From: a virus
IMG/VR virus record: IMGVR_UViG_3300044997_000693
Coordinates: 7,242-71,241 of that record
Length of the DNA: 64,000 nucleotides
Reading direction: 5' to 3' (one strand)
Below are positions 20,451 to 36,750 of the stretch, one piece after another. Position numbers and translations under genes: made by a program. Every line of letters begins with the position of its first letter. Position 1 is the first letter of the stretch. The notes under the pieces were generated by a model. The model worked only from the letters and a program-made list of their open reading frames with translations, searched no databases and was not told the DNA's origin.

Positions 20451-20534
20451 AAATTTTTATCTCGACTCAAAATCTTGATAAATTATTCTGTAGGAAATCA
20501 TATCTCTACACCATCATTTATAACAAGGATCAAC

Positions 20535-21773
20535 ATGAAAAAAATTGGATTCATAGGAATTGGAAAATTAGGGCTTGATTGTGCCGAAGTGTTTGCAGAA
20601 AAGCACCAAGTTTGGGGATATGACATTTGTCCACGTACCAGCGACAGTGTAAAAGTCTGTGGTATCGAAGAATTAATTCAAAACAGCGAATGGATTTTTA
20701 TTGCTGTTCCCACTCCACATGCCGAAGGCTACGATGGATCAGTTCCGTCAAGTCACATGACTCCGCGAGATTTTGGGCACGATGCTGTGATCGATGCTAT
20801 CAATAACATAAACCGGTATGCCAAAGATTCTAAAAAGGTCGTGCTGATCAGCACAGTATTGCCTGGAACAACTCGCAACAAGTTTGTTCCATTACTGGAT
20901 AAAAAGCATCAATTTGTTTATAACCCGTATTTGATTGCCATGGGCTCGGTCAAGTGGGACATGGTCAATCCTGAAATGATCATGCTGGGCACCGAAGATG
21001 GCAGCTTGACTGGTGTTGCTGGGGAACTGCACGACCTGTATGAAACTATCATGCAGAATAATCCGCGTTATGAAATTGGTACCTGGGACGAATGCGAGGC
21101 CATCAAGATTTTTTATAATACATTTATTAGTGCCAAAGTTGGACTGGTAAACATGATACAGGACTTTGCCATGAAGATTGGCAATATCAATGTGGATGTT
21201 GTGACCAATGCCTTGGCTCGCAGCACCATGCGTATCATGGGTCCCAAGTACATGACAGCAGGCATGGGCGATGCAGGTGCTTGCCACCCCCGAGACAACA
21301 TTGCCCTGCGTTGGTTGGCGGAAGAATACAACGTCGGCTATGACCTGTTTGACACTGTGATGCATGCCAGAGAAATACAGGCCAAGAACTTGGCCCTGTT
21401 CCTGGTTGATCAAGCACAACGACACAGTCTGCCAATTGTGATTCACGGCAAGGCCTACAAACCCGATGTTGAATACTGTATCGGAAGTTACAGCACTTTG
21501 GTAGGATTTTATATTCGAGAAGCCGGATTACCAGTGGTCTATGTTGACCCATTGGCCGATGATCGCACCAATTGTCTTGACACCATTGACGGTCCTGCAG
21601 TATTTTTATGGGCACATAACAGAAAGGTCACTTACGAATATACCGGTAACACACCCGACACGCAACCGTATTGCAAAATTGAATCTGGCAGTATCATAGT
21701 TGACCCATGGCGCAAGTTGCCTGTTGACATGCCCGGCGTTGCTGTGTTGCATTACGGTAACACAAGAACTTGA
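20535..21773 (+). CDS. UDP-glucose/GDP-mannose dehydrogenase family protein
   Basis: GIGKLG, IAVPTP, STVLPG, GAC(H)PRD, AYKPD. Confidence 0.9.
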   Translation: MKKIGFIGIGKLGLDCAEVFAEKHQVWGYDICPRTSDSVKVCGIEELIQNSEWIFIAVPTPHAEGYDGSVPSSHMTPRDFGHDAVIDAINNINRYAKDSKKVVLISTVLPGTTRNKFVPLLDKKHQFVYNPYLIAMGSVKWDMVNPEMIMLGTEDGSLTGVAGELHDLYETIMQNNPRYEIGTWDECEAIKIFYNTFISAKVGLVNMIQDFAMKIGNINVDVVTNALARSTMRIMGPKYMTAGMGDAGACHPRDNIALRWLAEEYNVGYDLFDTVMHAREIQAKNLALFLVDQAQRHSLPIVIHGKAYKPDVEYCIGSYSTLVGFYIREAGLPVVYVDPLADDRTNCLDTIDGPAVFLWAHNRKVTYEYTGNTPDTQPYCKIESGSIIVDPWRKLPVDMPGVAVLHYGNTRT

Positions 21774-21784
21774 CAAGAAATACA

Positions 21785-22177
21785 ATGGGACTATTTGATC
21801 GCTTTAAAAAGAAACAGCCAGAAGTCAAAGTCAAAGACCAACCCAGGCCCAAGAAAACAGAAAAAACTGCCAAAGAGTTGGCCACAGAGAAGGGCGAGCC
21901 GTATGTGACTATTCTCAGCATGGAAGTTGATCCTGCCAACATGCAAAATGGTGCGTTTGAGCTGGATTGGAATGATAAGTTTGTGGCCAATCTCGTTCGC
22001 GCCGGTTATCAAATGAGTCCCAAGGATACTGACAGTGACATTGTGGATCGTTGGTTTACAGCTGTGTGCCGCAATGTTGTACTCGAAACCTATGAACAAT
22101 ACCAAGCCATGAATCCCGAACGTGATCGAGTGGTCAAGTCGCGCAATATCGGAAACGGAAGGAGCGAAGTGTCATGA
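21785..22177 (+). CDS. hypothetical phage protein
   Basis: 130-aa ORF, FELDWND. Confidence 0.75.
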   Translation: MGLFDRFKKKQPEVKVKDQPRPKKTEKTAKELATEKGEPYVTILSMEVDPANMQNGAFELDWNDKFVANLVRAGYQMSPKDTDSDIVDRWFTAVCRNVVLETYEQYQAMNPERDRVVKSRNIGNGRSEVS

Positions 22178-22827
22178 TCTTGGCCATCGGCGACAGCAAC
22201 CTATATCCATCATGTACCGAAACAGATCAACAACCGGTTGATCTTACCAATATGGGTCCGGTGTTTAGCAAACAAATGAAGCAAGACTTCAAGTGCTGGA
22301 GTAAAAATGGTGCCAGTAACTATTGGATCGAGTCTCACATTGAATACTTTTTAGCCGATTCTCGATGGAAATCTGATACAATGTTGTTTGTTGGTTGGAC
22401 CAGCTTTGAACGGGAAGAATGGCCTTGGTTGTACAGCAACATATCTGTGTGCGGCGGCCCAGATTTTGGCATGCCCGAATCAATGAAGGCCAAATTCAAT
22501 CAATGGAAAGCCGGGTTGACCGGCGAGTACTATCGTCAAATGACTCAGTTGTGGCATGATAGAATCTATGCCCTGCATTTGCAACTGCGTGAACGCGAGA
22601 TACCGCACCTGTTCTGGACCACCTATAACAATTTTAATACCATTGTCGATCAACACAATTGGCACGGAAACTTTTTTCAACCTTATGACCAAAATGGTTG
22701 TATGAGTCGTTACCTAGAGTCCAACGGTATTCGTGCAATTGACAATGATCCGTTTCATTATGGACCAGATGCACATGCAATGTGGGCCACAGCACTGAGC
22801 ACCTATGCCAAAAATAATGCGCTATGA
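22174..22827 (+). CDS. SGNH-like protein
   Basis: IGDS, GASN, GWT..EREEW, HYG. Confidence 0.65.
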   Translation: MILAIGDSNLYPSCTETDQQPVDLTNMGPVFSKQMKQDFKCWSKNGASNYWIESHIEYFLADSRWKSDTMLFVGWTSFEREEWPWLYSNISVCGGPDFGMPESMKAKFNQWKAGLTGEYYRQMTQLWHDRIYALHLQLREREIPHLFWTTYNNFNTIVDQHNWHGNFFQPYDQNGCMSRYLESNGIRAIDNDPFHYGPDAHAMWATALSTYAKNNAL

Positions 22828-23528
22828 TTTTGTACGTCAACGGTGACAGTCACACTGCTGCTGCCGAGGCAGTAAATTCTCATGCATTTGCCGAAGATGA
22901 CCCTGCATTGTATTATTTAGGACGACTGCCGCATCCGGATAATCTGCAGGTTTCTTGGGGTAAATTGCTGAGCATGGCTCTTAATTCTGGGTTTCAATGC
23001 GAAGCCGAAAGCGCCAGCTCAAACATCAGAATATTAAGAACCACCAGAGCCTGGCTTGCTGCACGAAAGAATAGTCTAGAACGCAAGTTGGTTATTATTC
23101 AATGGTCAACTTGGGAGCGGGAAGAATGGCTATACAATGGTACTTATTATCAAGTCAACGGCAGTGGCATTGACCAAGTGCCTGCTATTGCTCAAGAAAG
23201 ATATCGTAACTACGTGATCGGCCTCGATTGGCAGCAAAAAACTCAGTCAGCACACGATGAAATCTGGAAGTTTCATCAAGAACTCGTGTCTCAAGATATC
23301 CCTCATGTGTTCTTCAATGGCAATAATGATTTCAGTTCAATTGTCGATCGACGTGATTGGGGACTCAATTATATTGGTCCATATGATTCCAACAGCACAT
23401 ACCATGCTCGACTACAGGCCGCAGGAATTGAAACAGTCATGCCCGATTCATACCATTATGGACGTGACGGGCACAGTTGGTGGTTTAAATACTTGCTCGG
23501 GTATTTAATAACAAACAAATTTGTATGA
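22824..23528 (+). CDS. SGNH-like protein
   Basis: NGDSH, ASSN, QWSTWEREEW, HYGRDGH. Confidence 0.65.
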   Translation: MILYVNGDSHTAAAEAVNSHAFAEDDPALYYLGRLPHPDNLQVSWGKLLSMALNSGFQCEAESASSNIRILRTTRAWLAARKNSLERKLVIIQWSTWEREEWLYNGTYYQVNGSGIDQVPAIAQERYRNYVIGLDWQQKTQSAHDEIWKFHQELVSQDIPHVFFNGNNDFSSIVDRRDWGLNYIGPYDSNSTYHARLQAAGIETVMPDSYHYGRDGHSWWFKYLLGYLITNKFV

Positions 23529-24301
23529 TATTTAAAACCCGAAACATCAAAAAGCAGCACAGCACCGTTTATAATTTTGGTATTAAGAATCTAATCGTTA
23601 GTGGATGCAGCTTTACTTACAACTCCTCTGACGCATCGGCGCTCACCTGGCCATATTTTCTTAGAGACCTTGGCGGTTTTGAACAGGTATTAGATTGTTC
23701 CCTTCCAGGAGCAGGCAACAGTCATGTGTCGGATTCTTTAATTTGGGCATTAGAAATGGACCAACCGGATCCGACAGATAGTTTGGTGATAGTGATGTGG
23801 TCCGGGTATGATAGAGATGATTATATCTGTCCTAAAGAAAATATAAACAACTATTCAGATCAATTTTATTACAGTAAAAATGTAATGTCGTCAATCACCG
23901 GTGGCAATCATGCAGAATCTTGTGGAAATAGTATTTCAGATGGACTAAAAAAATTATCAATAACAAAAAACAACGAATCAAGAGCAATTGAAAACTATCT
24001 ACACATTGCAAAAACCTATCAATATTTGAACTCTCTAAATTATAACTTTTTATTTTTAAATTTTATAAATCCTACAGAACCGATAGGTGGAACCAACACA
24101 TTTGATATAAAAAAATATTTGCCAAATCCGGCAAAACAAACACTGGATTCAATGATGACCAAAATTGATGATCTGTATCATTTTTCTATTAGATATAATC
24201 TATTGCTGGGCGATAACTTTCACCCTAACCAATACGGGCATTTGAGATGGACCAGAACGGTATTAATACCGCACTTAAAAACTGTTATTCAATTGACTTA
24301 G
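23525..24301 (+). CDS. SGNH-like protein
   Basis: GCSFT, GAGN, MWSGYDR, HPNQYGH; AT-rich. Confidence 0.65.
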   Translation: MIFKTRNIKKQHSTVYNFGIKNLIVSGCSFTYNSSDASALTWPYFLRDLGGFEQVLDCSLPGAGNSHVSDSLIWALEMDQPDPTDSLVIVMWSGYDRDDYICPKENINNYSDQFYYSKNVMSSITGGNHAESCGNSISDGLKKLSITKNNESRAIENYLHIAKTYQYLNSLNYNFLFLNFINPTEPIGGTNTFDIKKYLPNPAKQTLDSMMTKIDDLYHFSIRYNLLLGDNFHPNQYGHLRWTRTVLIPHLKTVIQLT

Positions 24302-24327
24302 AAATAGTTTGCTGCTATAATAGCGGT
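24293..24327 (+). promoter_or_regulatory. sigma70-type promoter, probably giving a leaderless mRNA
   Basis: TTGACT-17-TATAAT, ATG 6 nt later. Confidence 0.7.
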
Positions 24328-25329
24328 ATGAAATATGTTCTAATAGACACAGCCAATATGTTCTTTCGAGCCCGACACGGTGCTTTTCGTGCCAGCGACA
24401 CATGGGAAAAGATTGGATTTGCACTGCATGTGACCTTGATGAGTGCCAACAAAGTGGCTCGACGCTTTGAAGCAGACCATGTGGTGTTTGCCTTGGAGGG
24501 CAGAAGCTGGCGCAAGGATCGCTACAAGCCCTACAAAAATAACCGTGCTGTGGCCCGTGCTGCTCTTACCGAAGCCCAAGCCGAAGAAGACAAATTGTTT
24601 TGGGAAACTTATGATAGCTTGACTAAATACCTGGGCGAAAAGACCAATTGCTCGGTAATTAGATGTCCAACAGCCGAGGGCGACGACATCATTGCTCGCT
24701 GGATCGCACTACACCCCCAAGACGAACATGTTATTATCAGCAGCGACACTGACTTTGTACAACTTGTGGCTGCCAATGTCAAACAATACAACGGCATCAC
24801 AGACGAACTAATCACCACGGAAGGCACCTATGATGCCAATGGCAATGCTGTCATTGATAAAAAAACTAAACAGCCCAAGGCTAGACCGGACCCGGCCTGG
24901 CTGTTGTTTGAAAAGTGCATGCGTGGCGACAGCTCAGACAACGTGTTCAGTGCATATCCGGGAGTTCGTGAACGAGGCACAAAGAACAAAGTTGGTCTCC
25001 GTGAAGCCTATGCCGATCGAGACCGACGAGGCTACAATTGGAACAATCTCATGCTGCAACGCTGGACTGATCCTGACGGTGTAGAACATCGAGTACTGGA
25101 TGACTACGAACGCAATAGACAATTGATCGATTTAACAGCACAGCCCGAAGAGATCAAAGCCACTGTGGATACTGCCATCTGTGAACAAATCAGTCACAAA
25201 GACATTGGCCAAGTGGGTGTGCGTTTTATGCAGTTTTGTGGCAAATATGAATTGAACAAATGCAGTGAATCAGCAGACAGTTTTGGCCGTTGGATGAGTA
25301 AAACATACAAAGGCATATTGAATAGTTAA
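24328..25329 (+). CDS. rnh: T4-type RNase H / 5'-3' exonuclease
   Basis: LID, SWRK..Y..YK.NR, EGDDII, SSDTDF.QL, GDSSDN, N..LIDL. Confidence 0.9.
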   Translation: MKYVLIDTANMFFRARHGAFRASDTWEKIGFALHVTLMSANKVARRFEADHVVFALEGRSWRKDRYKPYKNNRAVARAALTEAQAEEDKLFWETYDSLTKYLGEKTNCSVIRCPTAEGDDIIARWIALHPQDEHVIISSDTDFVQLVAANVKQYNGITDELITTEGTYDANGNAVIDKKTKQPKARPDPAWLLFEKCMRGDSSDNVFSAYPGVRERGTKNKVGLREAYADRDRRGYNWNNLMLQRWTDPDGVEHRVLDDYERNRQLIDLTAQPEEIKATVDTAICEQISHKDIGQVGVRFMQFCGKYELNKCSESADSFGRWMSKTYKGILNS

Positions 25330-25344
25330 AAAGGAGTCACCGAT

Positions 25345-25803
25345 ATGACATTGATAGCAAAGCCCGTGGTAGACAAACAATTTTGGATCTTGCAAGAAAA
25401 CAACCAAAAGGTCGGCAACATCGAAGCCTGTGCAGGCGGTTACCAGGTAAAGATCAACAATCAGGTCGTACAATACAAAACCATAAAGTCAGCAGCCCGA
25501 ACAGCCAATATCAAATTCGAACCGGCCATTAAGATCACCAAGCCCAAGACCGATGTAGATCATATTCATGGATATCCGGTGACCGGCCGTGTGTACAATC
25601 CCATGTGGGACGTTAGTCAACACCTGCCGGTGTACACCAAAACAGCCAAAAGCAAAAGTTGGTTCAGCGCCGGCTGGTATAACATTCGCAAGGGTCGAAA
25701 CTGGCAAACAGTGCTGGCACCCAAGCTGATTGTGTTGCAGAGATATCCGTATCAGGGTCCATACCACACAGAACAAGCGGCACATGACAATTCATCTCAG
25801 TAA
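25345..25803 (+). CDS. hypothetical phage protein
   Basis: AAGGAG SD; 152 aa. Confidence 0.75.
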   Translation: MTLIAKPVVDKQFWILQENNQKVGNIEACAGGYQVKINNQVVQYKTIKSAARTANIKFEPAIKITKPKTDVDHIHGYPVTGRVYNPMWDVSQHLPVYTKTAKSKSWFSAGWYNIRKGRNWQTVLAPKLIVLQRYPYQGPYHTEQAAHDNSSQ

Positions 25804-25993
25804 GTTCATTGAGCGGGTTCAAGGTCAGCAGGCACGCGGTGCCCGAGACTTTATTATGAGCATGAAAGATGCTCAGGATCTACATGCCGATATCACTAGA
25901 TTATTGCTGGAACTTCGAGCATTGCACGAACAAACAGTTCCGACTCTACAACAAGAAACAATTACCGTGAAAATAGACGGTGGCACATTCTAA
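25784..25993 (+). CDS. hypothetical protein
   Basis: 69-aa ORF ending DGGTF. Confidence 0.7.
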   Translation: MTIHLSKFIERVQGQQARGARDFIMSMKDAQDLHADITRLLLELRALHEQTVPTLQQETITVKIDGGTF

Positions 25994-26038
25994 AACTACT
26001 TATATTTCTGGATAAATAAAATATAGGAGTTTAACGAA

Positions 26039-26326
26039 ATGAGCCGCCCAAAACCCAACATACTGATCGAGCAAACCAACAAGTCCACCTACAAGAGCGA
26101 ACAGGTCTTGGCCTCTGAAGGCGTGTGGGCAGTATTTTATGACGCCAGGCCCATCAACCTTAAAACCACAAACATGCTGGTGCAATACCCTGGGCCCAAG
26201 TATAAAAAGGTTTCATTCAGCAATCCCGGGCATGCTATAAATCTGGCTCTCAAACTCAACACACAATTCAAAACTGAAAAGTTCACTGTGGTGTTGCTGA
26301 AGTCGGGCGATCAAATTTATCCTTGA
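26039..26326 (+). CDS. hypothetical phage protein
   Basis: AGGAG SD, GATAAATA upstream; YPGPKYKKVSFSNPGHA. Confidence 0.8.
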   Translation: MSRPKPNILIEQTNKSTYKSEQVLASEGVWAVFYDARPINLKTTNMLVQYPGPKYKKVSFSNPGHAINLALKLNTQFKTEKFTVVLLKSGDQIYP

Positions 26327-26327
26327 T

Positions 26328-26699
26328 GTGCGCGACAAGAAAAAACTCACCAAAGAGTTGATTGCGCTGCTTGACCAAGAAATCCGTGTTGATCTAAAAT
26401 CTGCCATGACCACTTGGTGGTATAACATTCGTCGCACCGGTGGCATGCGATTGACCAGCACAGGATACTCAGCACTGGCCAAGGATTTAGACCTTGAACA
26501 CTACTCGTACAACGTTGACAACCCGCAGATGTTTAACAAACAGCTTATGTTAACACTGGACCGTAAAATGCAAATGCCCTATTATATTCAAGCGGTCAAA
26601 GGCGTACCTAAAAAAATCATATTTTTCGGCAGCCGGGAAGCAGTGATGGTGAATCTTTACGGAAATTTATCGCAATTTCTTGACAACTATGAATTGTGA
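26328..26699 (+). CDS. hypothetical phage protein
   Basis: 123-aa ORF, GTG start. Confidence 0.7.
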   Translation: MRDKKKLTKELIALLDQEIRVDLKSAMTTWWYNIRRTGGMRLTSTGYSALAKDLDLEHYSYNVDNPQMFNKQLMLTLDRKMQMPYYIQAVKGVPKKIIFFGSREAVMVNLYGNLSQFLDNYEL

Positions 26700-26717
26700 T
26701 GTTATACTGTGCATCAA

Positions 26718-26794
26718 GGGCCTGTAGCTCAGTTGGTCAGAGCAGTGGACTCATAATCCATTGGTCCCTGGCTCAAATCCAGGTGGGCCCACCA
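26718..26794 (+). tRNA. tRNA with CAT anticodon, Ile2 (lysidine)-like body; T-loop CTCAAAT
   Basis: GGGCCTG/TGGGCCC-A-CCA acceptor; GTGGA-CTCATAA-TCCAT; own TTGACA-17-TATACT promoter. Confidence 0.9.
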
Positions 26795-26867
26795 AACATG
26801 ATAAATAATACAGTTGCAGAACACCCAAAGTCTGCAATCGAATTAAATTCAAAGAAAGCAATAGCAC

Positions 26868-27083
26868 ATGATAGTAGGCAAAGTAAAATGGTTCAATGAT
26901 GCCAAGGGATTTGGATTCATTACACCCGATGACGGCAGCGAGGATGTATTTGCGCATTTTTCGGCCATCAACATCAATGGATTTAAAACATTGAAGGAAA
27001 ATCAACTGGTGACATTTGAGCTGGTCAACGGTCCCAAAGGTCGTCAAGCGTCAAATATTGAAGTCAAAACATCATCATTTTAA
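26868..27083 (+). CDS. cold-shock protein
   Basis: GKVKWFN..KGFGFI, DVFAHFS. Confidence 0.95.
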
Positions 27084-27122
27084 CAATGATAATAAGTAAG
27101 TTATTAACAAAGGAGTTTTAAA

Positions 27123-27419
27123 ATGGCAACAATAAATACCAATGTGCAGATCCTAGCTACAGCACAAAGTCAAGCGACCTGGGGTCGAGCACTGTCAACT
27201 GAAGAATCAGCAGCTCTTCGAGCCAAACGAGGATCAATGTGGTCCCAGGGAAAATTTCAAGCTCGAGTGCCAAGTGAAACAGGTACCTTCGCATATGCAT
27301 GGGAGACGTTGGACGCTGCGGCCGAATATGTTGCCTATTGCAACACATTTACACCGCCGCCGGCTTCAGCCACTGCTTCGGCACTACCAGAGCCAACAGA
27401 GCCAACAGAGTCAGTTTAA
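27123..27419 (+). CDS. hypothetical protein
   Basis: AAGGAG SD; C-terminal EPT repeat. Confidence 0.7.
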   Translation: MATINTNVQILATAQSQATWGRALSTEESAALRAKRGSMWSQGKFQARVPSETGTFAYAWETLDAAAEYVAYCNTFTPPPASATASALPEPTEPTESV

Positions 27420-27512
27420 ATTTTATCTTTGGTCTGTATCAAAGATAGAAAAATATAAACTCAAACAGTTTAGTAGTGACAAGACTAGACAAAGTATGCC
27501 ACACTACAGAAT

Positions 27513-27847
27513 AGTAGTTTAAGGCCTGAATAGAAAGAAGTTCTGGACTCGGCTATCGTAGGCCGACATCTCCACCAACAGCACATTAGAAATAGTGTGT
27601 TGTTGTTGGGGATGAAAGGATTCGACAGGGCAACAAGTATTGACAGGATCTACTCGGCAAAAGTAAGAAGCCGCAGAGTCAGGAATTCCTGGCCGAAGAC
27701 AACAAAACAAGTAAATGCAACAGCATCTACGAGCGAAGTAGTTGTTTCTGGAAAGAATGTCAAGTTCTCTGCCAGAACAGTGAAAGCTCAATCTTTCGCG
27801 GTCTAATCACCGGCGTAGGGTAGTTATACCTAGTAACAGAAACTAAC
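27513..27847 (+). ncRNA. ssrA: circularly permuted (two-piece) tmRNA; outer ends approximate
   Basis: acceptor piece ends CATCTCC-ACCA (27577); 30-nt hairpin spacer; coding piece starts GGGGATGAAAGGATTCGAC (27608); G3:U70; TAAAT-GCA resume at 27717. Confidence 0.88.
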
Positions 27848-27872
27848 AGGGCCTGCACTGCAGGCCCTTTAT
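27848..27872 (+). terminator. intrinsic terminator after tmRNA
   Basis: AGGGCCTGC/GCAGGCCCT hairpin + TTTAT. Confidence 0.75.
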
Positions 27873-27890
27873 CTTATTAACAACAGCCAA

Positions 27891-28658
27891 ATGAAGAAAG
27901 TGATTGTATGTGGGGACAGCTGGATGACTCCATCAATAGATTATCCCAACACTCATTTCTCTGAGCGATTGGCCAACAGATTAAATTGGAAGTTAGAGAT
28001 ATATGCTCGAGGTGGCATGAGCAATAATGGTATTTGTCTTCAGATCGAAAGCGCCATTAAAGAAAATCCAGATTTTATTTTACTAGACACAGCACCAAAC
28101 GATCGCATTGAACTGCCCATCGGTAAACACTGCGTCGACGGACAGAAAAACTTTGATGTGAGGGACATTGTCTATAATCATCCTCAATCAACCAGTTCAT
28201 TAAATCCAAACTTTAATAAATCTCCCAGATTGATAATTGATACCATCTATTCTTTTTTAGACCATTCGTATAATTTTGCAAAATACAAAACTCTGGTGCC
28301 GGACCTAGATTTAAAAAGAGCAATTATCAAACAATGGTTTAATAGTATTTACAACGACGAATGGAAATTAAAAACAGACAAATGGTGTTTATACGCTGCC
28401 CTGCATCAGTTGCACAACTCAAAAATTCCTTATTTGATAGTGATTGATCCTATCCAAGCAGTTGACATCTGCCCGTGGATCGACGAAAAAACATATCTAC
28501 ATCAAAAAATTTTCAATGATATATCTAGATTCAATTGTGATCTGGTCAAAGCTGTTGGACAGGTAGATCCAGGATATCACACCTTGCCAGAAGCACAACA
28601 CAAAATTGCCGACCTTGTTCTAGCACATCTTGAAGTTTATGCACGTCAATTGTTCTAA
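27891..28658 (+). CDS. SGNH-like protein
   Basis: CGDSW, GGMSN, DPGYH. Confidence 0.65.
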   Translation: MKKVIVCGDSWMTPSIDYPNTHFSERLANRLNWKLEIYARGGMSNNGICLQIESAIKENPDFILLDTAPNDRIELPIGKHCVDGQKNFDVRDIVYNHPQSTSSLNPNFNKSPRLIIDTIYSFLDHSYNFAKYKTLVPDLDLKRAIIKQWFNSIYNDEWKLKTDKWCLYAALHQLHNSKIPYLIVIDPIQAVDICPWIDEKTYLHQKIFNDISRFNCDLVKAVGQVDPGYHTLPEAQHKIADLVLAHLEVYARQLF

Positions 28659-28783
28659 AACTCTATGAAAGTATAAAAATCAACGGCCACTGCTGCTACC
28701 ACTAAGTAATAGGCTGGGTTTGGTCCAATATTTTATTAACAGAGAAAGTAGAAAGAGTCTTTTTCTTTTTGGCAATGCACTGG

Positions 28784-28983
28784 TTGACAACTCATAAATA
28801 ACCCTATAAAATAGCTGCTATGATAAACAATAACTTGCATCTTTCTACAGCAAACATTCCAACAGTTGGCCGGGCCATTCAATGGGTGCATAACTGTAAA
28901 GATTTAAAAGCAAGGCTTGAATAACAGCAAATTTCGATCGTATTCAACAGCCCCGAAACTGAACATTCCGGGGTTTTTTATTT
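28784..28983 (+). promoter_or_regulatory. promoter + leaderless 34-codon ORF (28820-28924) + terminator; attenuator-like
   Basis: TTGACA-17-TAAAAT, ATG 7 nt later, CCCCG..CGGGG-TTTTTT hairpin at about 28951-28979. Confidence 0.5.
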
Positions 28984-28998
28984 GTCAAAAGGAAAACA

Positions 28999-29166
28999 AT
29001 GAACTATATCAAAATGCAAAAGGATTGTCCAACTGACACAGGTGACAACCTGTTTTTGTCCGAAGAGCTCAAAACACAATTGATTCAAGACAAGATTCAA
29101 CGAGCAATTCAAACAAGTGAACTACTAAGACAGCTACACGCCTATCAACAGTCCGACGACCAATGA
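28999..29166 (+). CDS. small hypothetical protein (55 aa, not in ORF track)
   Basis: AAGGA SD; MNYIKMQKDC..; ATGA-coupled to next gene. Confidence 0.6.
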   Translation: MNYIKMQKDCPTDTGDNLFLSEELKTQLIQDKIQRAIQTSELLRQLHAYQQSDDQ

Positions 29167-29477
29167 AAAAATTAGTGCGTGATGGTCGAGTGGCTGTGTT
29201 GGTAAGATCCAGACATGGCGGTGGTTGGTACAGCTGGCATCGCATTGAAGAGCTGTTGTACGATCCCACAGTTGTGGAGTGGTTGGAACAGGGCAAAATA
29301 ACAAGTATTCAATCGTACCTGGCTTTGAAATACCAAGACGAGTATATTAGTGGTCAACTGGATCTAGATGGCTTGGAAGTGCAATGGGTACCGGCGGGTG
29401 TTCGATTCCGTATAAATGAATATGATGGAACCGAAAACATTGTACTGGAATCCCAAGAACGCTGGTTAACAGCATAG
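29163..29477 (+). CDS. hypothetical phage protein
   Basis: VAVL.S..GGGWYSW..FRINEYDG.E. Confidence 0.75.
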   Translation: MKKLVRDGRVAVLVRSRHGGGWYSWHRIEELLYDPTVVEWLEQGKITSIQSYLALKYQDEYISGQLDLDGLEVQWVPAGVRFRINEYDGTENIVLESQERWLTA

Positions 29478-29540
29478 TGTAGACAAAGGAGGCCACGGTC
29501 AAGATCAGTATTCGGGGTGCAAATCTCTGGCAGGCTGCCA
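29470..29540 (+). pseudogene. possible decayed tRNA (T-arm and 3' CCA only)
   Basis: CGGGG-TGCAAAT-CTCTG then CAGGCTG-CCA; no convincing D or anticodon arm. Confidence 0.35.
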
Positions 29541-29602
29541 AATTGTGTCAACGCAGCTGCTGGCTCATGCATTATATGTATATCTAGTCAATGGAGATCA
29601 GC

Positions 29603-29755
29603 ATGTCACACTGGGATAGGGTTCTGCAAGTACGAGAGTTGCGCGACAGAAGGTTGTCGGCACAGGAAATTTCAAAACGACTGTGCATGACAGTGGAGTA
29701 TGTACACCAAATCCTAGCCGAATTATCCGGTCGTTCAATATTTGAAAACGATTAA
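29603..29755 (+). CDS. small HTH-like protein (50 aa, not in ORF track)
   Basis: GGAG SD; LSAQEISKRLCMTVEYVHQIL. Confidence 0.6.
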   Translation: MSHWDRVLQVRELRDRRLSAQEISKRLCMTVEYVHQILAELSGRSIFEND

Positions 29756-29882
29756 AAATAGTAAATACAGTCAATGCAGATTGAGTCAGTTGAATTTCAA
29801 GACAGAAATTCCGTTGACTAATAATGTAGTGACTTCACTACAAGCCGCTGGCTGATTCAGCAGAGAGCCTCTATAAAGTTAT

Positions 29883-29958
29883 CGCAGGGAGAATCCGATC
29901 GCCCGCATGGTCTCATAAGCCATTGCCATCCTTGGTTCAAATCCAAGCCCCGCAACCA
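29883..29958 (+). tRNA. atypical initiator-like tRNA-Met(CAT)
   Basis: CGCAGGG/CCCCGCA-ACCA with C1xA72; ATGGT-CTCATAA-GCCAT; good T-arm, degenerate D-arm. Confidence 0.7.
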
Positions 29959-29992
29959 ATAATACTAAATAGACGATCACAAGGCAAATTCA

Positions 29993-30634
29993 ATGAGTAT
30001 AAAAAATTATCTAGTACGAAGTTTATACCGAGTCAACACCCGGGTCGCAGGAATAAAACCGTCTGACTATACTGCATATAAAAAAATGCATGAATTAACT
30101 CTCACCAGTTTAAAAAAATACATCGGTGGCGAATGGGAGCTGGTGTTGTTTGAAGGCGAAGTAGACAAAGGTCAACAAATGATGAAAGATGTTTTTATAA
30201 AAACTCATCGCTTGTGGTCGCAAGAACCATGCAATATACTTTTTGTTGACATGGACATTTTAGCGTGTGGACCGATTGATTTTTTTAATCAATATAAACA
30301 TTTTACCATGTTTGCAAAAATAAGAGAAGACTTTTACAACTGCGGTTTGCGTTATTTCCCCCACACCATGGATCCGGCACTTTGGGATATAGGGTTTGAA
30401 TTATATAAAGATTGGAACGACGATGCAGAATGGGATCGTGACCAACTTGTTTATTCTAAAATGCTTTGTAGTCAAAATGATTTTGTTTTTACTCAAATAC
30501 CAATAAATGTCTGGTTTGAGACATTTGAGTTCCATCCCGAGTTTCTTACTCAATATAAATTATTGCATTTTCACAGTGCCAAAGGACCCAGACCGGTTTT
30601 TGCATTGATTAAAAAATATTCAACCGGCGTTTGA
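29993..30634 (+). CDS. GT-A-like hypothetical protein (paralog of 17044)
   Basis: KNYLV, EPCNILFVDMD (DxD), NCGLRYFP..MD, HFHS. Confidence 0.6.
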   Translation: MSIKNYLVRSLYRVNTRVAGIKPSDYTAYKKMHELTLTSLKKYIGGEWELVLFEGEVDKGQQMMKDVFIKTHRLWSQEPCNILFVDMDILACGPIDFFNQYKHFTMFAKIREDFYNCGLRYFPHTMDPALWDIGFELYKDWNDDAEWDRDQLVYSKMLCSQNDFVFTQIPINVWFETFEFHPEFLTQYKLLHFHSAKGPRPVFALIKKYSTGV

Positions 30635-30648
30635 GCAGCAGGTCGCTG

Positions 30649-31347
30649 TTAAATTTTAGATAAAAACATATCTGCAATGCGTTGGTGTGTTTTTTCACCA
30701 TAGTGTTGTAAATCTCTAGCTTTGTCACGTACATGAATATTCGCTGCTTGTCGTTGAATGTATTTGATGCCGCGCTCGCTGCATAGTTGTTTGATAGCTA
30801 GAGTATTTTTCAAATAGTTCATATCACTGTTGGAATCATTACTGTGCCAGTGTCGCATGAAATCGTTGACCATTGGAAAAGCATGAGGCCAAACACTGAG
30901 ATCAAATATCTCATTGTCGCCTGTGTGCAATTCAAATCTGGTTTTCTCTGGAGATAAAAAAAGTACCAAACTTGGTTTCAGTTGTTCAATCCAATAGTAT
31001 GCCAGTCGAAACGCAGTATCATTAGAAGATCCACCGACTGAAATATTGTAATTTTTAAGATTTAGTGAAGTACTAACTATATGTGCCCAGGTCGATTCGA
31101 CCGGCAATCCCACACCCAGTGTATGACTACATCCAACAAACAGTATATTTGACCCGGGCGAATCAAACTCATCTGCACGGAATCCGTGGCTGTTAAATTT
31201 GTATTTGATGGGTCGATCAACCCAGTTATATCTCTCTAGTTCTACTAGATTTGTTTTTAGGTTTTTTTGATACCGGTGTTCTGAGTCCGTTCCGTTCCAA
31301 TCGAATTCTTGATTGGCCAAAGCTAAATTGGAGTGCCTAGGTATCAT
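30649..31347 (-). CDS. SGNH-like protein
   Basis: NSHGFR, GCSHT.GVG, GSSND, ARDLQHYG. Confidence 0.65.
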   Translation of the reverse strand: MIPRHSNLALANQEFDWNGTDSEHRYQKNLKTNLVELERYNWVDRPIKYKFNSHGFRADEFDSPGSNILFVGCSHTLGVGLPVESTWAHIVSTSLNLKNYNISVGGSSNDTAFRLAYYWIEQLKPSLVLFLSPEKTRFELHTGDNEIFDLSVWPHAFPMVNDFMRHWHSNDSNSDMNYLKNTLAIKQLCSERGIKYIQRQAANIHVRDKARDLQHYGEKTHQRIADMFLSKI

Positions 31348-31354
31348 GGATTAT

Positions 31355-32365
31355 TTAACCGGTCACAGCCAGCTGCAGCACCTGCTTGATGGGATTCATC
31401 CAGTCAGTTGACAAAAAATGCTGTTGATTGTGTGTCAACACCGACTGTAATTTCAGCATAACTGACGCAGGGTCCAACTCACACAGTTGTTCGACCTGCT
31501 GCCAGGCCAGCGTAAAACGTTCATGTTCGTCTTCGATCACATCATAGCTTTCGTCAATTACAGCATCAAAAGTTTGAAAGCCCAGACTACGCAGATTCCG
31601 TAAAAAATACTGCCCGGTAAACGCCACAAAAGGTCTACCAGCTACAAAAGTTTTGGCAGTTTTTTCAGTGAAGTGACTGTACTGGTTGGTGCACAGTGTT
31701 TCAGCCACTATGCTATAAAAGGTTTTGTTGTAGATTTCGACCGGCAATAGCGCACTGATCCAGGCCGATCTTCCATGTATGTCTACCCGAACTTGATGTG
31801 TGGTGGTTTGGGCTCGATCAACATTGCAAGACCAAATACCTTGATTGACTTGATTTTTAAAGTAACTGTAGATAAAGCAGTCCTGATATGCACTGGAGTT
31901 GTACAATCTCTCAATTTGATTTCTGTGTGATTTGCTTGTGCCCAACAAGCAATCAAATCTTTTTGGTCGATCCAGCCCTAAATACAGTTGTGATTGTAAT
32001 TTTTTTGCCCACACCTGGGTTGCATAGTAGTTGTCAGGTTGACCAAACCAACTGACAAGTGGAAACAGATTGGCTGCAGCAAAGTTGGCAACCGTTGGTG
32101 AAAAAATTATAATTCTAGTGTCACTGTGTGCGCTGACAAATTGATAAAAATCTCCAACAGGCTCTTCAATTATTACCAGCAATTGTCGAGTTTTCATTAA
32201 TAATTTTTCAATCACACGGGCATGTGCTGAATAATCACAATCAAAAAATGCTATCGAAATCAAATCACAATCATTGGGTATTTGATCAATTTGTTGATAT
32301 TGGTTATATGCTGTCAGGGGTGGTGTAACTGCATGATAAGAAAACTGATCTAAAAAAATTTTCAT
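31355..32365 (-). CDS. glycosyltransferase-like protein (ET..TEKT family)
   Basis: SIVAET..FTEKTAK..PF..LR.LGFQTF..IDESYD. Confidence 0.55.
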   Translation of the reverse strand: MKIFLDQFSYHAVTPPLTAYNQYQQIDQIPNDCDLISIAFFDCDYSAHARVIEKLLMKTRQLLVIIEEPVGDFYQFVSAHSDTRIIIFSPTVANFAAANLFPLVSWFGQPDNYYATQVWAKKLQSQLYLGLDRPKRFDCLLGTSKSHRNQIERLYNSSAYQDCFIYSYFKNQVNQGIWSCNVDRAQTTTHQVRVDIHGRSAWISALLPVEIYNKTFYSIVAETLCTNQYSHFTEKTAKTFVAGRPFVAFTGQYFLRNLRSLGFQTFDAVIDESYDVIEDEHERFTLAWQQVEQLCELDPASVMLKLQSVLTHNQQHFLSTDWMNPIKQVLQLAVTG

Positions 32366-32472
32366 ACTGTTTTTAAATAGTTCATGCTGTGGTGGATGTC
32401 ACCGCATATTTATACCAGCTTGACAATCATGATTTTTTAGTGTAAAATACACATTTACACTAGGAGACCCCA

Positions 32473-32715
32473 ATGAAACCAATTACCAACAGTCGCGGCG
32501 ACCAGATTAATCTTGAAAAATGTGTCATCAATGCCGGCAATCGTTATGACCTGATTATTGCTGCATCACAACGACTGCGCGAACTCAAACGCCGGGCTCA
32601 AGAAACCGGGGCATATGTCACCGCAGTCGATGCTTTGTTGGAACTGCAACAGGGCCGAGTTGACGTGCCGCAATATCTAGCCAAGGTAAAAACACCACAA
32701 CGAAAAAGACCTTGA
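32473..32715 (+). CDS. rpoZ: RNA polymerase omega subunit homolog
   Basis: GNRYDLIIAASQRLREL..V.ALLEL..G; AGGAG SD; TTGACA-17-TAAAAT promoter. Confidence 0.75.
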   Translation: MKPITNSRGDQINLEKCVINAGNRYDLIIAASQRLRELKRRAQETGAYVTAVDALLELQQGRVDVPQYLAKVKTPQRKRP

Positions 32716-32721
32716 CAAATA

Positions 32722-33153
32722 CTATTTGTAAAGGTAATTGACGGTGTCGGTATTTTCTCTCAATTCTCTAGCACCGTTTTTCAAATGAAAGCGACGAGCC
32801 ATTTCAGTCTTGGGACTCAAAGTCACATAGGTTTGAATTTCAGGAAACTCTGCTTCAATTGACCGTTGAGCAGACACGATAAGTTCTCGCCCGGCACCGG
32901 CTGCGTAGCTCCAGATGGTATAAAACACCGCAGTTGTTGCGTGACTGATTGATGTGACCAGATCATCCACTGCCGAAGGAACTGTTTCTAAAAATTTAAC
33001 ACAGGTAACGGCCAATGTACGATTGCCATCCTTCAACAGGTAGATTCGACTGTTTGAGTTCACACGGTCCGACAAGGGTATTTCTGGTCGTACAGGATCG
33101 TCCTTGACAAGGGCCTCGAGATCGTCTGAAATGGAAGTAATTGTGTGTAACAT
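32722..33153 (-). CDS. GNAT-fold protein resembling malonyl-CoA decarboxylase C-domain
   Basis: AVFYTIWS..GAGRELI..FPEIQTYVTLSP. Confidence 0.55.
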   Translation of the reverse strand: MLHTITSISDDLEALVKDDPVRPEIPLSDRVNSNSRIYLLKDGNRTLAVTCVKFLETVPSAVDDLVTSISHATTAVFYTIWSYAAGAGRELIVSAQRSIEAEFPEIQTYVTLSPKTEMARRFHLKNGARELRENTDTVNYLYK

Positions 33154-33229
33154 TATATACGCCGTTAATGTTGTTGATAAAATTATTTATCAAAGTCCGT
33201 GGATTGGTATAAATTATAGTGTTGATACT

Positions 33230-33319
33230 GGAGAGTTGGGTGAGCGGCTGAAACCAACGGTCTACTAAACCGTCATAGTGGCGACATTATCGTGGGTTCG
33301 AATCCCACACTCTCCGCCA
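33230..33319 (+). tRNA. tRNA-Ser body with ACT anticodon
   Basis: GGAGAGT/ACTCTCC-G-CCA, long variable arm, ACGGT-CTACTAA-ACCGT. Confidence 0.9.
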
Positions 33320-33333
33320 AGCTATAACAATTG

Positions 33334-33810
33334 ATGAAACCATTTGATATTGAAGCAGTAAACAGCTTCATACAAGCACAGAGCAAAGAAACTAGAATCT
33401 ATATCGGTGTTGATTCCGAGCGTGTGAGAGAAAACAACACCTGGTATGCTGTGTACACTGCCGCTGTTGTGGTTCACATAGACGGTAAACATGGTTGTCG
33501 CTTGTTCGGCGAAGTCACCAAAGAACGTGACTGGGATCAACGGGCCGATCGCCCCAATACCCGACTCATGAACGAAGTGTACAAGGTATCTGAACTGTAC
33601 CTGCGCTTGGCTAGTGTGCTGGAGGATCGACTGGTAGAAGTGCATCTGGACATCAATTCGGCCGATAAACATGTCAGTTCTAATGTGGTGGCTCAGGCCA
33701 TTGGCTATATTCGTGGCACCTGCAACATCACGCCCAAAATCAAACCCGAAGCCTTTGCAGCCACCAACGCAGCAGATCGCTTGAGAAACCTAAAAATAGC
33801 CAACGAGTAA
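33334..33810 (+). CDS. RNase H-like protein (YkuK/DUF458-like)
   Basis: IYIGVDS, RLMNEV, EVHLDIN, IKPEAFAAT.AAD. Confidence 0.8.
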   Translation: MKPFDIEAVNSFIQAQSKETRIYIGVDSERVRENNTWYAVYTAAVVVHIDGKHGCRLFGEVTKERDWDQRADRPNTRLMNEVYKVSELYLRLASVLEDRLVEVHLDINSADKHVSSNVVAQAIGYIRGTCNITPKIKPEAFAATNAADRLRNLKIANE

Positions 33811-33845
33811 ATACATGACCGTGTATTAATCAGGAATACAAAGGA

Positions 33846-33866
33846 AGGGCCTTCGGGCCCTTTGTT
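33846..33866 (+). terminator. intrinsic terminator
   Basis: AGGGCC-TTCG-GGCCCT-TTGTT. Confidence 0.8.
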
Positions 33867-33941
33867 ATTGAAAAAACCTACAAGCGTTATTAAAATAATT
33901 ATCGAAAAATCTATTGATTTTGGGTTTTAATAGTGTATAAT
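33867..33941 (+). promoter_or_regulatory. ahpC promoter with OxyR-like tetranucleotide array
   Basis: ATTG-N7-CTAC-N7-ATTA..ATCG-N6-CTAT next to TTGATT; TG-preceded TATAAT. Confidence 0.5.
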
Positions 33942-33992
33942 ATACACATACAACGAGGAGTTGTTGGTTTTCAACACACAAAGGAGAATCAA

Positions 33993-34541
33993 ATGAAAAC
34001 AGTTGGTGATAAATTAGAAAAATTTGCTGTTACTGGCGTTAAGCCCGGACAACCAGAAGATGCTTTCTTCGACATTACAGATGAGAGCTTTGCTGGCAAG
34101 TGGAAAGTTATCGTTTACTATCCAAAAGATTTCACGTTTGTTTGCCCCACAGAGATCGTAGCCTATGACAAATTGGCACAGGACTTTGAAGATCGTGATG
34201 CTGTATTGCTCACAGGTTCAACAGACAATGAATTCTGTAAAGTTGCATGGCAAAAGGCACACCCAGATCTACAAAAGATCACTCACACACAATTTGCTGA
34301 CACGCAGCGTGGTGAGTCAAGTTTGATTGAACAACTTGGTGTATTCTACGCTCCAGCAGGTGCAGCATTACGTGCTACATTCATCGTTGACCCAGACAAC
34401 GTTATCCAACATGTTACTGTAAACAACTTGAACGTTGGTCGTAGCCCAGAAGAAACACTTCGTGTTCTTGATTCGATTCAGTCGGGAGAACTTTGTGCCT
34501 GTAATCGCCAAATCGGTGGCGAAACATTAGGTAAGGTTTAA
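33993..34541 (+). CDS. ahpC: peroxiredoxin
   Basis: YPKDFTFVCPTE, LRATFIVDP, VGRS..E.LR, LCACN; AAGGAG SD. Confidence 0.95.
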   Translation: MKTVGDKLEKFAVTGVKPGQPEDAFFDITDESFAGKWKVIVYYPKDFTFVCPTEIVAYDKLAQDFEDRDAVLLTGSTDNEFCKVAWQKAHPDLQKITHTQFADTQRGESSLIEQLGVFYAPAGAALRATFIVDPDNVIQHVTVNNLNVGRSPEETLRVLDSIQSGELCACNRQIGGETLGKV

Positions 34542-35447
34542 ATGGAGGAGTTGGTGATAAATAATAGTGTAGTTCGCGGGGCTGGAACCCCCAACTACTC
34601 TAATGCTTACAAGGAGCAATCAGCAATAATATTTATCGCCAACCGATATACTTTCATCTACTTTTCTATAATAGAGAACGCAAGATTAAGAGTATTACCA
34701 AAAGACCAATACAAAGAAACACACCATATTATTCCTCGTTCGATGGGCGGGGATGATTCTTCTGACAATCTAGTAGACCTAACAGCCAAGGAACATTTTA
34801 TCTGCCATAAACTTTTAGTAAGAATGACGTCAGGCGAATCTAAAGGTAAGATGGCATTTGCGGTAGTGTTAATGTCCGGCAAGAGAAGTAGTAGAATATA
34901 TTCTTCTACTAAAAAACTTTTAGCAGAACGAATGAGTGAATTACATACAGGAAAGATTCCTATCACCGACGGTGTAGTCGATAAAACTATATTCAAAGGC
35001 GAGTCTTTACCAGACGGATTTTACCAAGGATTCTCTCCTGCTACTATTAAAAAGCACGGAGATGGAAACAAAGGTAAAAAATGGATCACTAACGGCGTTG
35101 TATCATATCAAATAAAAGATGATATATTGCCAGAAGGTTTCTATTGGGGGCAAGCAGAATACCATAAGAAAAAGAATAGTGAGGCATTGAGTGGTGAAGG
35201 AAATCCAATGTTTGGAAAGTTAGGCAAACATCATCCAGCATTCGGAAACAAGCACACAGAAGAAATGTTAAAACATCTTTCTCTTTCTAAACAAGGAAGT
35301 AAGAATCCTATGTATGGTAAACTACCCCATAATGCTAAATCCATTGAAGTGAATGGTGTTTTATATAAATCTGTTAAAGAAGCAAGAGAGAAAACAGGAT
35401 TGTCAAGAGGAAAAATAGAAAAACTTTACAAAGGAATAATATCATGA
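34542..35447 (+). CDS. free-standing HNH homing endonuclease with NUMOD-like repeats; start uncertain
   Basis: ETHHIIPRSMGG.D..NLV.LT.KEHFICHKLL, WITNG, GNPMFG, KHTEE; AT-rich, between ahpC and ahpD. Confidence 0.85.
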   Translation: MEELVINNSVVRGAGTPNYSNAYKEQSAIIFIANRYTFIYFSIIENARLRVLPKDQYKETHHIIPRSMGGDDSSDNLVDLTAKEHFICHKLLVRMTSGESKGKMAFAVVLMSGKRSSRIYSSTKKLLAERMSELHTGKIPITDGVVDKTIFKGESLPDGFYQGFSPATIKKHGDGNKGKKWITNGVVSYQIKDDILPEGFYWGQAEYHKKKNSEALSGEGNPMFGKLGKHHPAFGNKHTEEMLKHLSLSKQGSKNPMYGKLPHNAKSIEVNGVLYKSVKEAREKTGLSRGKIEKLYKGIIS

Positions 35448-35962
35448 GTTGGGTTGATCAAATCAAAGAAGCGTTACCAGAATACGCAAAAGATATTAAG
35501 TTGAATTTAGATTCAGTTATTAAAAGAAGTACTCTACCAGATGAAGTTGCCAACGCCTGTGCGTTAGCGGCAGCATTTGCTACAGGGAACGGTAAATTAG
35601 TTACATTTGTAAGTAGTAACTTTACAGAGGATCAAGCCGTTGTTCGTGATGCTGCACTATCGGCGGCCAGTCTGATGGCAATGACAAACAGTTGGTATCC
35701 ATATGTTGAAATGACAGAGGACCCCAATCTAAAAGGATTGCCTGCCCAACTCAGAATGAATGTTATCGCAAGTCATGGCGGAACTACCAAGACAAACTTT
35801 GAAGCATTCAGCCTTGCCGCAAGTATTGTTGGCAAATGCCATTTCTGCGTGAAAGCCCATTACGATGGACTGAAGGCATTGGGCTATACTGTTGAGCAGT
35901 TGAGAGACATTGGTAGAATCGCGGCTGTGATGAACAGTGTAGCGAAAGTGCTAAATAGCTAA
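35444..35962 (+). CDS. ahpD: alkylhydroperoxidase AhpD
   Basis: LPEYAKDIKLNL, LRMN, SIVGKCHFCVKAH. Confidence 0.93.
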   Translation: MSWVDQIKEALPEYAKDIKLNLDSVIKRSTLPDEVANACALAAAFATGNGKLVTFVSSNFTEDQAVVRDAALSAASLMAMTNSWYPYVEMTEDPNLKGLPAQLRMNVIASHGGTTKTNFEAFSLAASIVGKCHFCVKAHYDGLKALGYTVEQLRDIGRIAAVMNSVAKVLNS

Positions 35963-36056: not shown

Positions 36057-36073
36057 TTTAAAAAGGAACTAAA

Positions 36074-36748: not shown

Positions 36749-36750
36749 TA

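Follow-up and report, generated by a model that had tools for sequence, protein, structure and literature searches.

Does a fragment of a viral genome encode a working two-piece transfer-messenger RNA (tmRNA), and did the rearranged gene behind it arise separately from those of bacteria? The question is raised by a locus at 27513-27877 (+) of a 64,000-nucleotide (nt) stretch of IMG/VR record IMGVR_UViG_3300044997_000693 (positions 7,242 to 71,241 of that record), which is called the window here and to which all coordinates without a contig handle refer. The preliminary description had seen in this locus a circularly permuted ssrA gene that is easily missed by annotation and may stem from an independent permutation. 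Judged from its sequence and its relatives, the locus is very probably a functional phage-borne circularly permuted ssrA gene that would yield a two-piece tmRNA; its anatomy, family membership, covariation, coding-type conservation of the tag and synteny in related phages are directly supported. Of the earlier interpretation, the permuted tmRNA in a phage and the ease with which it is missed hold, while the independent permutation and the implied rarity do not.

Family membership and anatomy of the gene

Comparison with the Rfam model for permuted tmRNAs (RF04321), which had been proposed as a check, was run and gives a match at 27513-27720 (+) of 63.7 bits against a cut-off of 47, with E = 5.7e-10 for the whole window searched against 4227 Rfam families. 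The alignment spans model positions 1-175 of 213 and has the 3' acceptor half ahead of the 5' half, which places the gene in this family, and 16 of the 16 relatives tested pass the same model. This score, the phage genes around the locus and its synteny in related phages bear out the claim of a permuted tmRNA gene within phage DNA. The strands CATCTCC and GGGGATG, read directly, form the 7-base-pair (bp) acceptor stem that had been described, with G27610:U27571 at the 3:70 position, as the RF04321 alignment also gives; with G3:U70, a discriminator A and a CCA end, the domain resembles an alanine transfer RNA (tRNA). The parts of the gene are as follows.

27513-27877 (+): complete permuted tmRNA gene (direct reading, RF04321, terminator scan)
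27472-27512 (+): upstream block, putative promoter region (alignment to the betaproteobacterial model RF01850 from 27472; conserved with viral contig L130)
27513-27577 (+): acceptor piece (RF04321 from model position 1, direct reading, covariation)
27513-27517, 27532-27539 and 27540-27545 (+): 5' strands of the inter-piece helices, within the acceptor piece
27549-27566 (+): T-arm TCGGC-TATCGTAG-GCCGA, with stem 27549-27553 / 27562-27566 and loop 27554-27561 (direct reading)
27567-27573 (+): 3' acceptor strand CATCTCC (direct reading)
27574 and 27575-27577 (+): discriminator A and encoded CCA (direct reading)
27578-27607 (+): intervening spacer of 30 nt, presumably removed on maturation; forms a hairpin together with C27576 and A27577
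27608-27653 (+): start of the coding piece (RF04321 alignment)
27608-27614 (+): 5' acceptor strand GGGGATG (direct reading)
27615-27625 (+): D-loop analogue AAAGGATTCGA (RF04321 alignment)
27626-27631, 27639-27647 and 27649-27653 (+): 3' strands of the inter-piece helices, within the coding piece
27654-27716 (+): pre-tag region with hairpin CGGC..GCCG, a 30-nt insertion with hairpin CAGGAATTCCTG and an A-rich leader ending TAAAT (RF04321 and RF01850 alignments; fold predicted)
27717-27806 (+): tag frame with resume codon GCA (27717-27719), 29 codons (ATASTSEVVVSGKNVKFSARTVKAQSFAV) and stop codon TAA (27804-27806)
27816-27845 (+): post-tag pseudoknot with stem TAGG/CCTA (27816-27819 / 27829-27832) and loop TAGTT (27821-27825) pairing with AACTA (27841-27845) across AACAGAA (pairs read by eye)
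27848-27877 (+): intrinsic terminator, a 9-bp G+C-rich hairpin (27848-27868) followed by TTATCTTATT (terminator scan)

A junction pattern (CTCCACCA, a spacer, and GGGGNTG...TTCGAC, used in degenerate form) found at least 119 stretches in a scan of viral contigs, and the window was aligned with 66 distinct sequences among the matches listed, giving a set of 67. In this set, 96.5% of the cells are paired; shuffled controls reach 77.8%, and controls with slid partners about 50%. All five pairs of the T-arm change on both sides, as do five of the six pairs of the proximal inter-piece helix GTTCTG/CAGGGC (27540-27545 / 27626-27631), and the one acceptor pair left free by the search forms in all 67 sequences, with six types of pair among them; the remaining acceptor pairs are uninformative, because they were fixed by the search pattern. 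For the distal helix AGTAG/CTACT (27513-27517 / 27649-27653), 46 of 63 relatives hold their own 5-bp partner, compared with 34% for swapped partners, a comparison that replaced a crude duplex-energy test with weak results (window z = -1.1, family mean -0.88). The third pairing, CCTG.AATA/TATT..CAGG, is legible in the window sequence, where it was read only. Thus, of the inter-piece pairings in the preliminary description, the proximal one is borne out by covariation and AGTAG/CTACT has moderate support.

The GAAA-loop hairpin that had been placed across the spacer (27576-27605) also stands. It has 13 pairs and a predicted energy of -16.3 kcal/mol (z = -6.1 against 100 mononucleotide shuffles), and the spacers of the relatives (n=67) are structured as well, with a median z of -3.8 and 70% of them under -1.64. 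The identical hairpin sequence occurs in L042, L108 and L120.

The tag frame, the T-loop and the case for and against a decayed copy

The tag frame has a GCN resume codon in place of a start codon and closes with a stop codon; the leader before it reads ...CAAGTAAAT, and the resume context TAAATGCA fits the RF04321 consensus. Frame and terminator lie where the preliminary description had put them, the terminator hairpin at 27848-27868 closing its interval. The frame was compared with that of the related contig L079, whose tag (ANASKGEVTVSASKGIRFSARSSVKAETFAV) is near-identical in four further contigs. The window and L079 share 61 of 90 aligned bases (about 32% nucleotide divergence), and their codons comprise 11 identical, 8 synonymous and 11 non-synonymous ones, with two in-frame 3-nt indels and differences of 10/5/14 over the three codon positions, whereas the other two frames give 2/13 and 1/15 synonymous/non-synonymous changes and contain stops. 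A serine switch between AGT and TCT separates L079 from L131. By this codon evidence the 29-residue tag is conserved at the protein level.

The last codons of the tag, FAV (TTC GCG GTC TAA), match codon for codon those of the LAA ending in L130 (TTA GCG GCC TAA), and FAV is retained in L079 by way of synonymous changes (GCA GTT vs GCG GTC). This ending is hydrophobic, yet not Ala-Ala; it probably still marks proteins for proteolysis, with a changed strength or through a different protease. Long tags of this kind are not confined to the window: ARAGORN reads homologous ones in L120 (ATASTKGSFKFSGKGVKLASAAREAVMA), L254 and L034 (AEKTSKFETVKVSMGKGFRFGSADRAVALA), and among 43 distinct viral tags, read by regular expression and confirmed by ARAGORN in five cases, 9 have at least 25 residues and 5 have an end other than Ala-Ala. 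An 18-mer at the resume site had 20 matches, 12 of them chance matches in coding sequence. In L255 with L271 and in L261, the tag resembles a canonical 10-residue one with a long extension ahead of it (ATASTLEFLNNSSIVVANDEQFALAA; ATASTFKHFEVPAFVAKAANAERFELAA), which suggests that long tags grew by insertion after the resume codon.

Upstream of the tag frame, the CGGC/GCCG stem holds an insertion of 30 nt, compared with 5 in the consensus of RF04321 and RF01850, and no riboswitch family of Rfam, including the Melnitz-type glutamine riboswitch, matches here at E up to 10. Downstream, a 26-mer of the pseudoknot occurs exactly in 8 viral contigs, its motif GYAACAGAA is common to the window and the bacterial genes L224 (beta type) and L216 (alpha type), and in 8 of 10 sequences, a small sample, the pseudoknot has its own 6-bp partner, compared with 19% for swapped partners. 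A hairpin followed by a T-run stands at the equivalent place in L079, L130 and L224.

In the tRNA-like domain, the T-loop has 8 nt (TATCGTAG) on its covarying 5-bp stem instead of the canonical 7. The preliminary description had pointed to this loop, and direct reading and the alignment agree that it is real: 8 of the 67 aligned sequences have it, as TATCGTAK, TATCATAT or TCTCGGAT, on stems that covary. Among these 8 genes, 7 have a D-loop analogue one base shorter and then GGA, as opposed to 1 of the 59 others (Fisher p = 7e-8, uncorrected for shared descent); the short D-loop (GAAAGGA) lies at 27615-27620 in the window. The longer T-loop with the shorter D-loop may represent a compensated tertiary contact. 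A scan of genome contigs with the T-loop pattern gave 80 matches, among which were one permuted tmRNA (L188, on a 7.2-kilobase (kb) contig in a Bacteroidetes metagenome-assembled genome (MAG)) and three one-piece tmRNAs from Chloroflexia MAGs (L151:1907-2256, L162:5651-6000 and L213:4162-4510); nearly all of the rest are apparently chance matches, most of them inside genes. The three Chloroflexia genes differ from that of the window in being bacterial, one-piece and not permuted (RF00023, passed at 138-145 bits), and resemble it in the T-arm form GGGGC-TATCGTAT-GCCCC, in the short D-loop GAAAGGAUUCGA, found in the one Chloroflexia tmRNA whose alignment was seen, and in being invisible to ARAGORN. 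Because these three bacterial tmRNAs share it, the 8-nt T-loop is taken as a tolerated variant and not as an exclusion. ARAGORN calls none of the 8 genes of this form that were tested (the window and seven relatives) and none of the three Chloroflexia genes, while it calls five relatives with ordinary loops, which confirms that such genes are easily missed by annotation. Since ARAGORN is blind to the 8-nt T-loop, published counts of phage tmRNAs made with it would be lower bounds.

Several observations weigh against a functional two-piece tmRNA gene. The RF04321 score lies near the bottom of the relatives' range of 62-138 bits, and none of the three clade models is passed: beta_tmRNA (RF01850) gives 60.2 bits under a cut-off of 84, alpha_tmRNA (RF01849) 31.8 bits under a cut-off of 50 (model positions 84-170 only) and cyano_tmRNA (RF01851) 22 bits under a cut-off of 70 (model positions 53-123 only). 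On the window, ARAGORN reports four tRNAs and leaves the gene at 27513-27877 uncalled. A T-loop of 8 nt does not allow the usual T54-A58 geometry to be taken for granted; unlike 38 of the 43 distinct viral tags, that of the window does not end in Ala-Ala; and support for the distal inter-piece pairing is moderate. A promoter scan and a motif-enrichment test found no clear promoter upstream, where one weak sigma-70-like match stands at 27486-27515 (9/12) and where the first positions of the beta_tmRNA model cover a promoter-like stretch. As a recurring phage promoter, AAGTATGCCACA was tried and rejected, being not enriched in the window (9 matches, 7.9 expected). Finally, an SmpB gene was looked for without success in the 71-kb record and in five related ones, of which two are 94-99% complete, and the listed sequencing runs that contain the stretch include no RNA run.

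The non-canonical T-loop, the tag without an Ala-Ala end, the low model score and the missing SmpB gene could also be read together as marks of a copy that is decaying or has taken on another task and has ceased to tag proteins, for example a decoy titrating the SmpB of the host or blocking its trans-translation, a role that excerpts of PMC4131195 propose for the gene of mycobacteriophage DS6A, which has a tRNA-like domain only. This reading is improbable. The tag frame is unbroken, and its conservation is of the coding type across about 32% nucleotide divergence, with in-frame indels and with FAV preserved through synonymous changes (GCG GTC vs GCA GTT); the pseudoknot and terminator are conserved; and the 8-nt loop, on covarying stems in 8 sequences, is also found in three full-length bacterial tmRNAs (138-145 bits).

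Lineage of the permutation and apparent exchange between phages

The gene could also owe its form to a permutation that took place separately in phages, which would make it a fourth or later lineage with no descent in common with the two-piece genes of alphaproteobacteria, betaproteobacteria and cyanobacteria. In favor of this, the gene falls under the cut-offs of all three clade models, its T-loop and tag are atypical, and its 60.2 bits on the beta model are weak, for one-piece tmRNAs of Burkholderiales reach about 50 on that model; because of this last point, 60.2 bits alone prove little. Among 151 sampled genomes of this order (as defined by GTDB), three true beta-type genes were found, at 169-296 bits. 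Nevertheless, the alignment of the window to RF01850 starts at 27472 and covers the full model from end to end (positions 1-331), and relatives supply the link. L042, which passes the beta model at 149.9 bits, matches the window with 90.5% identity over 74 nt and shares its spacer hairpin; L130, at 92.7 bits, has both the upstream block of the window and the exact pseudoknot 26-mer; and L034, with a related long tag, passes at 127.3 bits. In total, seven relatives pass the beta cut-off at 93-150 bits (L042, L006, L034, L115, L009, L008 and L130), L254, L070 and L131 pass the alpha model weakly, and L079, L120, L088, L116, L188 and L255 pass neither.

A common plan further unites the window with bacterial L224 (beta, 169 bits) and L216 (alpha) and with L042 and L130: an acceptor piece, a spacer hairpin, GGGG...TTCGAC, a pre-tag hairpin, the TAAATGC resume context, a tag, a pseudoknot with GYAACAGAA and a terminator. 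The order of these parts and the TAAATGC and GYAACAGAA motifs match those of the bacterial genes. A separate permutation is improbable, slightly more so than a decayed copy. Because L042, L130 and L034 pass the beta model and share parts with the window, the gene is read not as a new permutation but as belonging, as a divergent member closest to the beta type, to a permuted lineage that already exists and circulates in phages. The independent origin that had been suggested is therefore not upheld, given the end-to-end alignment, the similarity to L042 and a gene order as in L224 and L216; comparison with the known lineages supplies the plan common to the beta and alpha genes, though not a pass on any clade cut-off. 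Two-piece tmRNAs of cyanobacteria were found neither in 61 sampled genomes nor in 5 of these re-searched with the cyanobacterial model, which is probably a matter of sampling or filter sensitivity.

That the locus is no RNA gene at all, being instead a small protein gene or the remnant of a host ssrA attachment site left by imprecise excision, is hardly credible: open reading frames (ORFs) do exist at 27597-27806 (+) and 27519-27791 (-), and ssrA is, according to excerpts of PMC9004378, a common integration site with fragments in prophages, but neither frame matches Pfam or PHROG, conservation tracks RNA pairing, the gene is complete and not a 3' fragment, no integrase domain was found among the 51 long ORFs scanned, and the locus is syntenic in related jumbo-phage contigs.

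Within the permuted genes of these phages, halves appear to have been exchanged. Upstream, L079 and L131 share 83% identity over 772 nt, and from within the coding piece onward they share 92.7% over 382 nt, while between these flanks L079:4075-4996 and L131:4980-6116 (about 0.9-1.1 kb), which hold the tRNA-Met gene and the entire tRNA-like half, give no alignment. Since the flanks align and the middle does not, one tag module stands behind two unrelated tRNA-like modules at the same locus, and the difference suggests that a cassette was exchanged, one of the breakpoints lying within the tmRNA gene. A broader picture, offered tentatively and with chances well short of even, is that freshwater jumbo phages maintain a recombining pool of two-piece tmRNA genes in which tRNA-like and tag halves would be swapped as modules; the tag would have been rebuilt to 28-31 residues with the motif GK[GN]-x-[KR]-[FL] and an ending of FAV, VMA or ALA. 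The role of the tmRNA would then go beyond ribosome rescue, tagged proteins being given a fate unlike that given by the host tag (slower degradation, or another protease or adaptor), and, separately, the 8-nt T-loop and the short D-loop would together make up a tmRNA elbow of a distinct, compensated form.

Phage context, known systems and significance

The source record has 71,241 bases and is rated 20% complete by CheckV, so the genome would be near 350 kb. A flap endonuclease/RNaseH gene at 24247-25329 encodes a protein 52% identical to its homologue in the Pseudomonas jumbo phage PA5oct and 47-48% identical to those of Erwinia and Xanthomonas phages of 355-368 kb; in the records that hold L079, L027 and L132 (the last of 353 kb and 99% complete) the identity is 74%, 65% and 54%. 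RNaseH matches in two related records have in-frame stops (one TAG and two TAA). The order RNaseH, three small ORFs, tRNA-Met and tmRNA is kept in L079, L131, L133, L129 and L134, with 37-77% protein identity, and because these related jumbo-phage contigs are syntenic, the gene is taken to be phage-borne and inherited within the phage group, not a host flank. In the window, a cold-shock gene and one more ORF stand between tRNA-Met and tmRNA; the former, at 26868-27083 (+), encodes a 71-residue CspA-like protein (Pfam CSD, 98.9 bits; PHROG 729), an RNA chaperone adjoining translation-related RNAs. The stretch is present in three lake-water DNA sequencing runs.

Keiler et al., in 2000, reportedly found that a two-piece tmRNA works in Caulobacter. 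By analogy, a single precursor in the window would start at about 27472-27513 and end at the terminator at 27868, and the acceptor stem (27567-27573 with 27608-27614) and the spacer hairpin would form within it. Host tRNA-processing enzymes would then cleave on the 5' side of G27608 and trim back as far as the encoded CCA at 27577, giving pieces of about 65 nt (acceptor) and about 260 nt (coding) that would be joined by the acceptor stem and by the helices 27513-27545 / 27626-27653. Host alanyl-tRNA synthetase would charge the RNA via G3:U70 and A73, host SmpB and EF-Tu would bring the charged RNA to stalled ribosomes, and translation would resume at GCA 27717, add 29 residues ending FAV and stop at TAA 27804. 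From the anatomy of the gene and its family we infer the processing, the alanine charging, the use of host SmpB and the 29-residue tagging; since no SmpB gene was found in the records searched, function would depend on the host, whose SmpB is presumably used. The benefit to the phage may be that ribosomes are kept free while host messages degrade during infection.

Among known systems, the betaproteobacterial two-piece tmRNA (RF01850) is similar in the order of its parts from promoter region to terminator, in the proximal helix GUUCUGGAC / UUCGACAGGGC, in the spacer hairpin, the CGGC..GCCG pre-tag hairpin and the UAAAUGC resume context, and in its one post-tag pseudoknot with AACAGAA. The window gene differs from it in its score (60.2 bits, as opposed to 169-296 in true bacterial members), in the 8-nt T-loop, the D-loop shorter by one base and the 30-nt pre-tag insertion, and in the tag, which has 29 residues and ends in FAV, whereas those of L224 and L042 have 10 residues and end in Ala-Ala. 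A second comparison is with phage Melnitz, in which a two-piece tmRNA was described by Buchholz et al. 2022 (PMC9004378). As characterized in excerpts of that report, Melnitz and other marine phages are alike in that their lytic-type genomes contain a complete permuted ssrA gene, set among genes for tRNAs and replication, but no SmpB gene of their own, and the proposed role of this tmRNA is to maintain the hijacked translation machinery. On the same description, by which the two were compared, the Melnitz gene differs in being alpha-like with a glutamine riboswitch, for which the window has no match, and its carrier is a marine myophage of the 140-kb class, whereas the window belongs to a freshwater jumbo phage. 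Permuted tmRNA genes are also present in cultured Stenotrophomonas T4-like phages, Marzo, Bhz51 and Yut2 for example, and in the Synechococcus phage BUCT-ZZ01; they match L042 at 71-82% over 20-44% of the gene, and several have tmRNA or ssrA annotations, but they give no blastn match to the window's own sequence. Likewise, blastn of 27400-27900 and megablast of 20000-40000 against a phage collection gave no tmRNA match, only tRNA matches.

The rarity of a phage copy implied by the preliminary description was overstated. According to excerpts of PMC9004378, an ARAGORN survey of 18,146 phage genomes found 53 two-piece tmRNAs, aquatic samples being the source of 50; at least 119 stretches came from the viral-contig scan above, and the 8-nt T-loop is also in three Chloroflexia tmRNAs. 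Excerpts of the 2025 tmRNA database paper, which introduced RF04321, list 79 bacteriophage sequences (PMC11915505), and those of Al-Shayeb et al. 2020 describe tmRNAs and SmpB in huge phages (PMC7162821). Because of these published cases, the phage two-piece tmRNA is a known kind and the window gene a new member of it. A literature search, which was not worded for these features, found no description of long FAV-type tags, of the 8-nt T-loop in phage tmRNAs or of T-loop/D-loop coupling.

Other features of the window and of the related contigs lie outside the tmRNA gene. A tRNA-Ser gene at 33230-33319 (+) has the anticodon ACT with an unusual A34 (ARAGORN; 56 bits on the Rfam tRNA model), and a homing-endonuclease-like ORF with a NUMOD3 motif at 34542-35447 (+) stands between an AhpC/TSA peroxiredoxin gene (33933-34541) and a CMD-family gene (35444-35962). 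The window is rich in auxiliary metabolic genes, among them several NAD-dependent sugar epimerases/dehydratases, five radical-SAM ORFs, NAD synthase, ThyX, TerC, a carbamoyltransferase, a DegT aminotransferase and an AAA ATPase plus a DUF2201 metallopeptidase/VWA pair, and no structural genes were found among the 51 window ORFs scanned. In L116, a GOLLD RNA (2524-2979; 175.8 bits, cut-off 150) lies in a dense tRNA array about 2.5 kb upstream of the 8-nt-loop tmRNA of that contig, and Rfam gives no GOLLD match in the window. A group I intron (L070:5544-5735, 69.3 bits) lies inside a tRNA array, and L099:2344-2418 is a tRNA with the anticodon CTA, which ARAGORN calls tRNA-Pyl, of the amber-suppressor type.

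In kind, then, the window gene is ordinary, phages being already known to carry two-piece tmRNAs. What is unusual in it or in its relatives is the 8-nt T-loop with the short D-loop, the long FAV tag and the exchange of the tRNA-like half. Because ARAGORN-based surveys miss this T-loop form, they would undercount phage tmRNAs and some bacterial ones. The T-loop base gained and the D-loop base lost would form a natural compensatory pair, a probe of how the tmRNA elbow fits SmpB and the ribosome, and the long tags ending in FAV, whose protein sequence is conserved at one locus in related jumbo phages, would make it possible to test what advantage a phage draws from a tag of its own.

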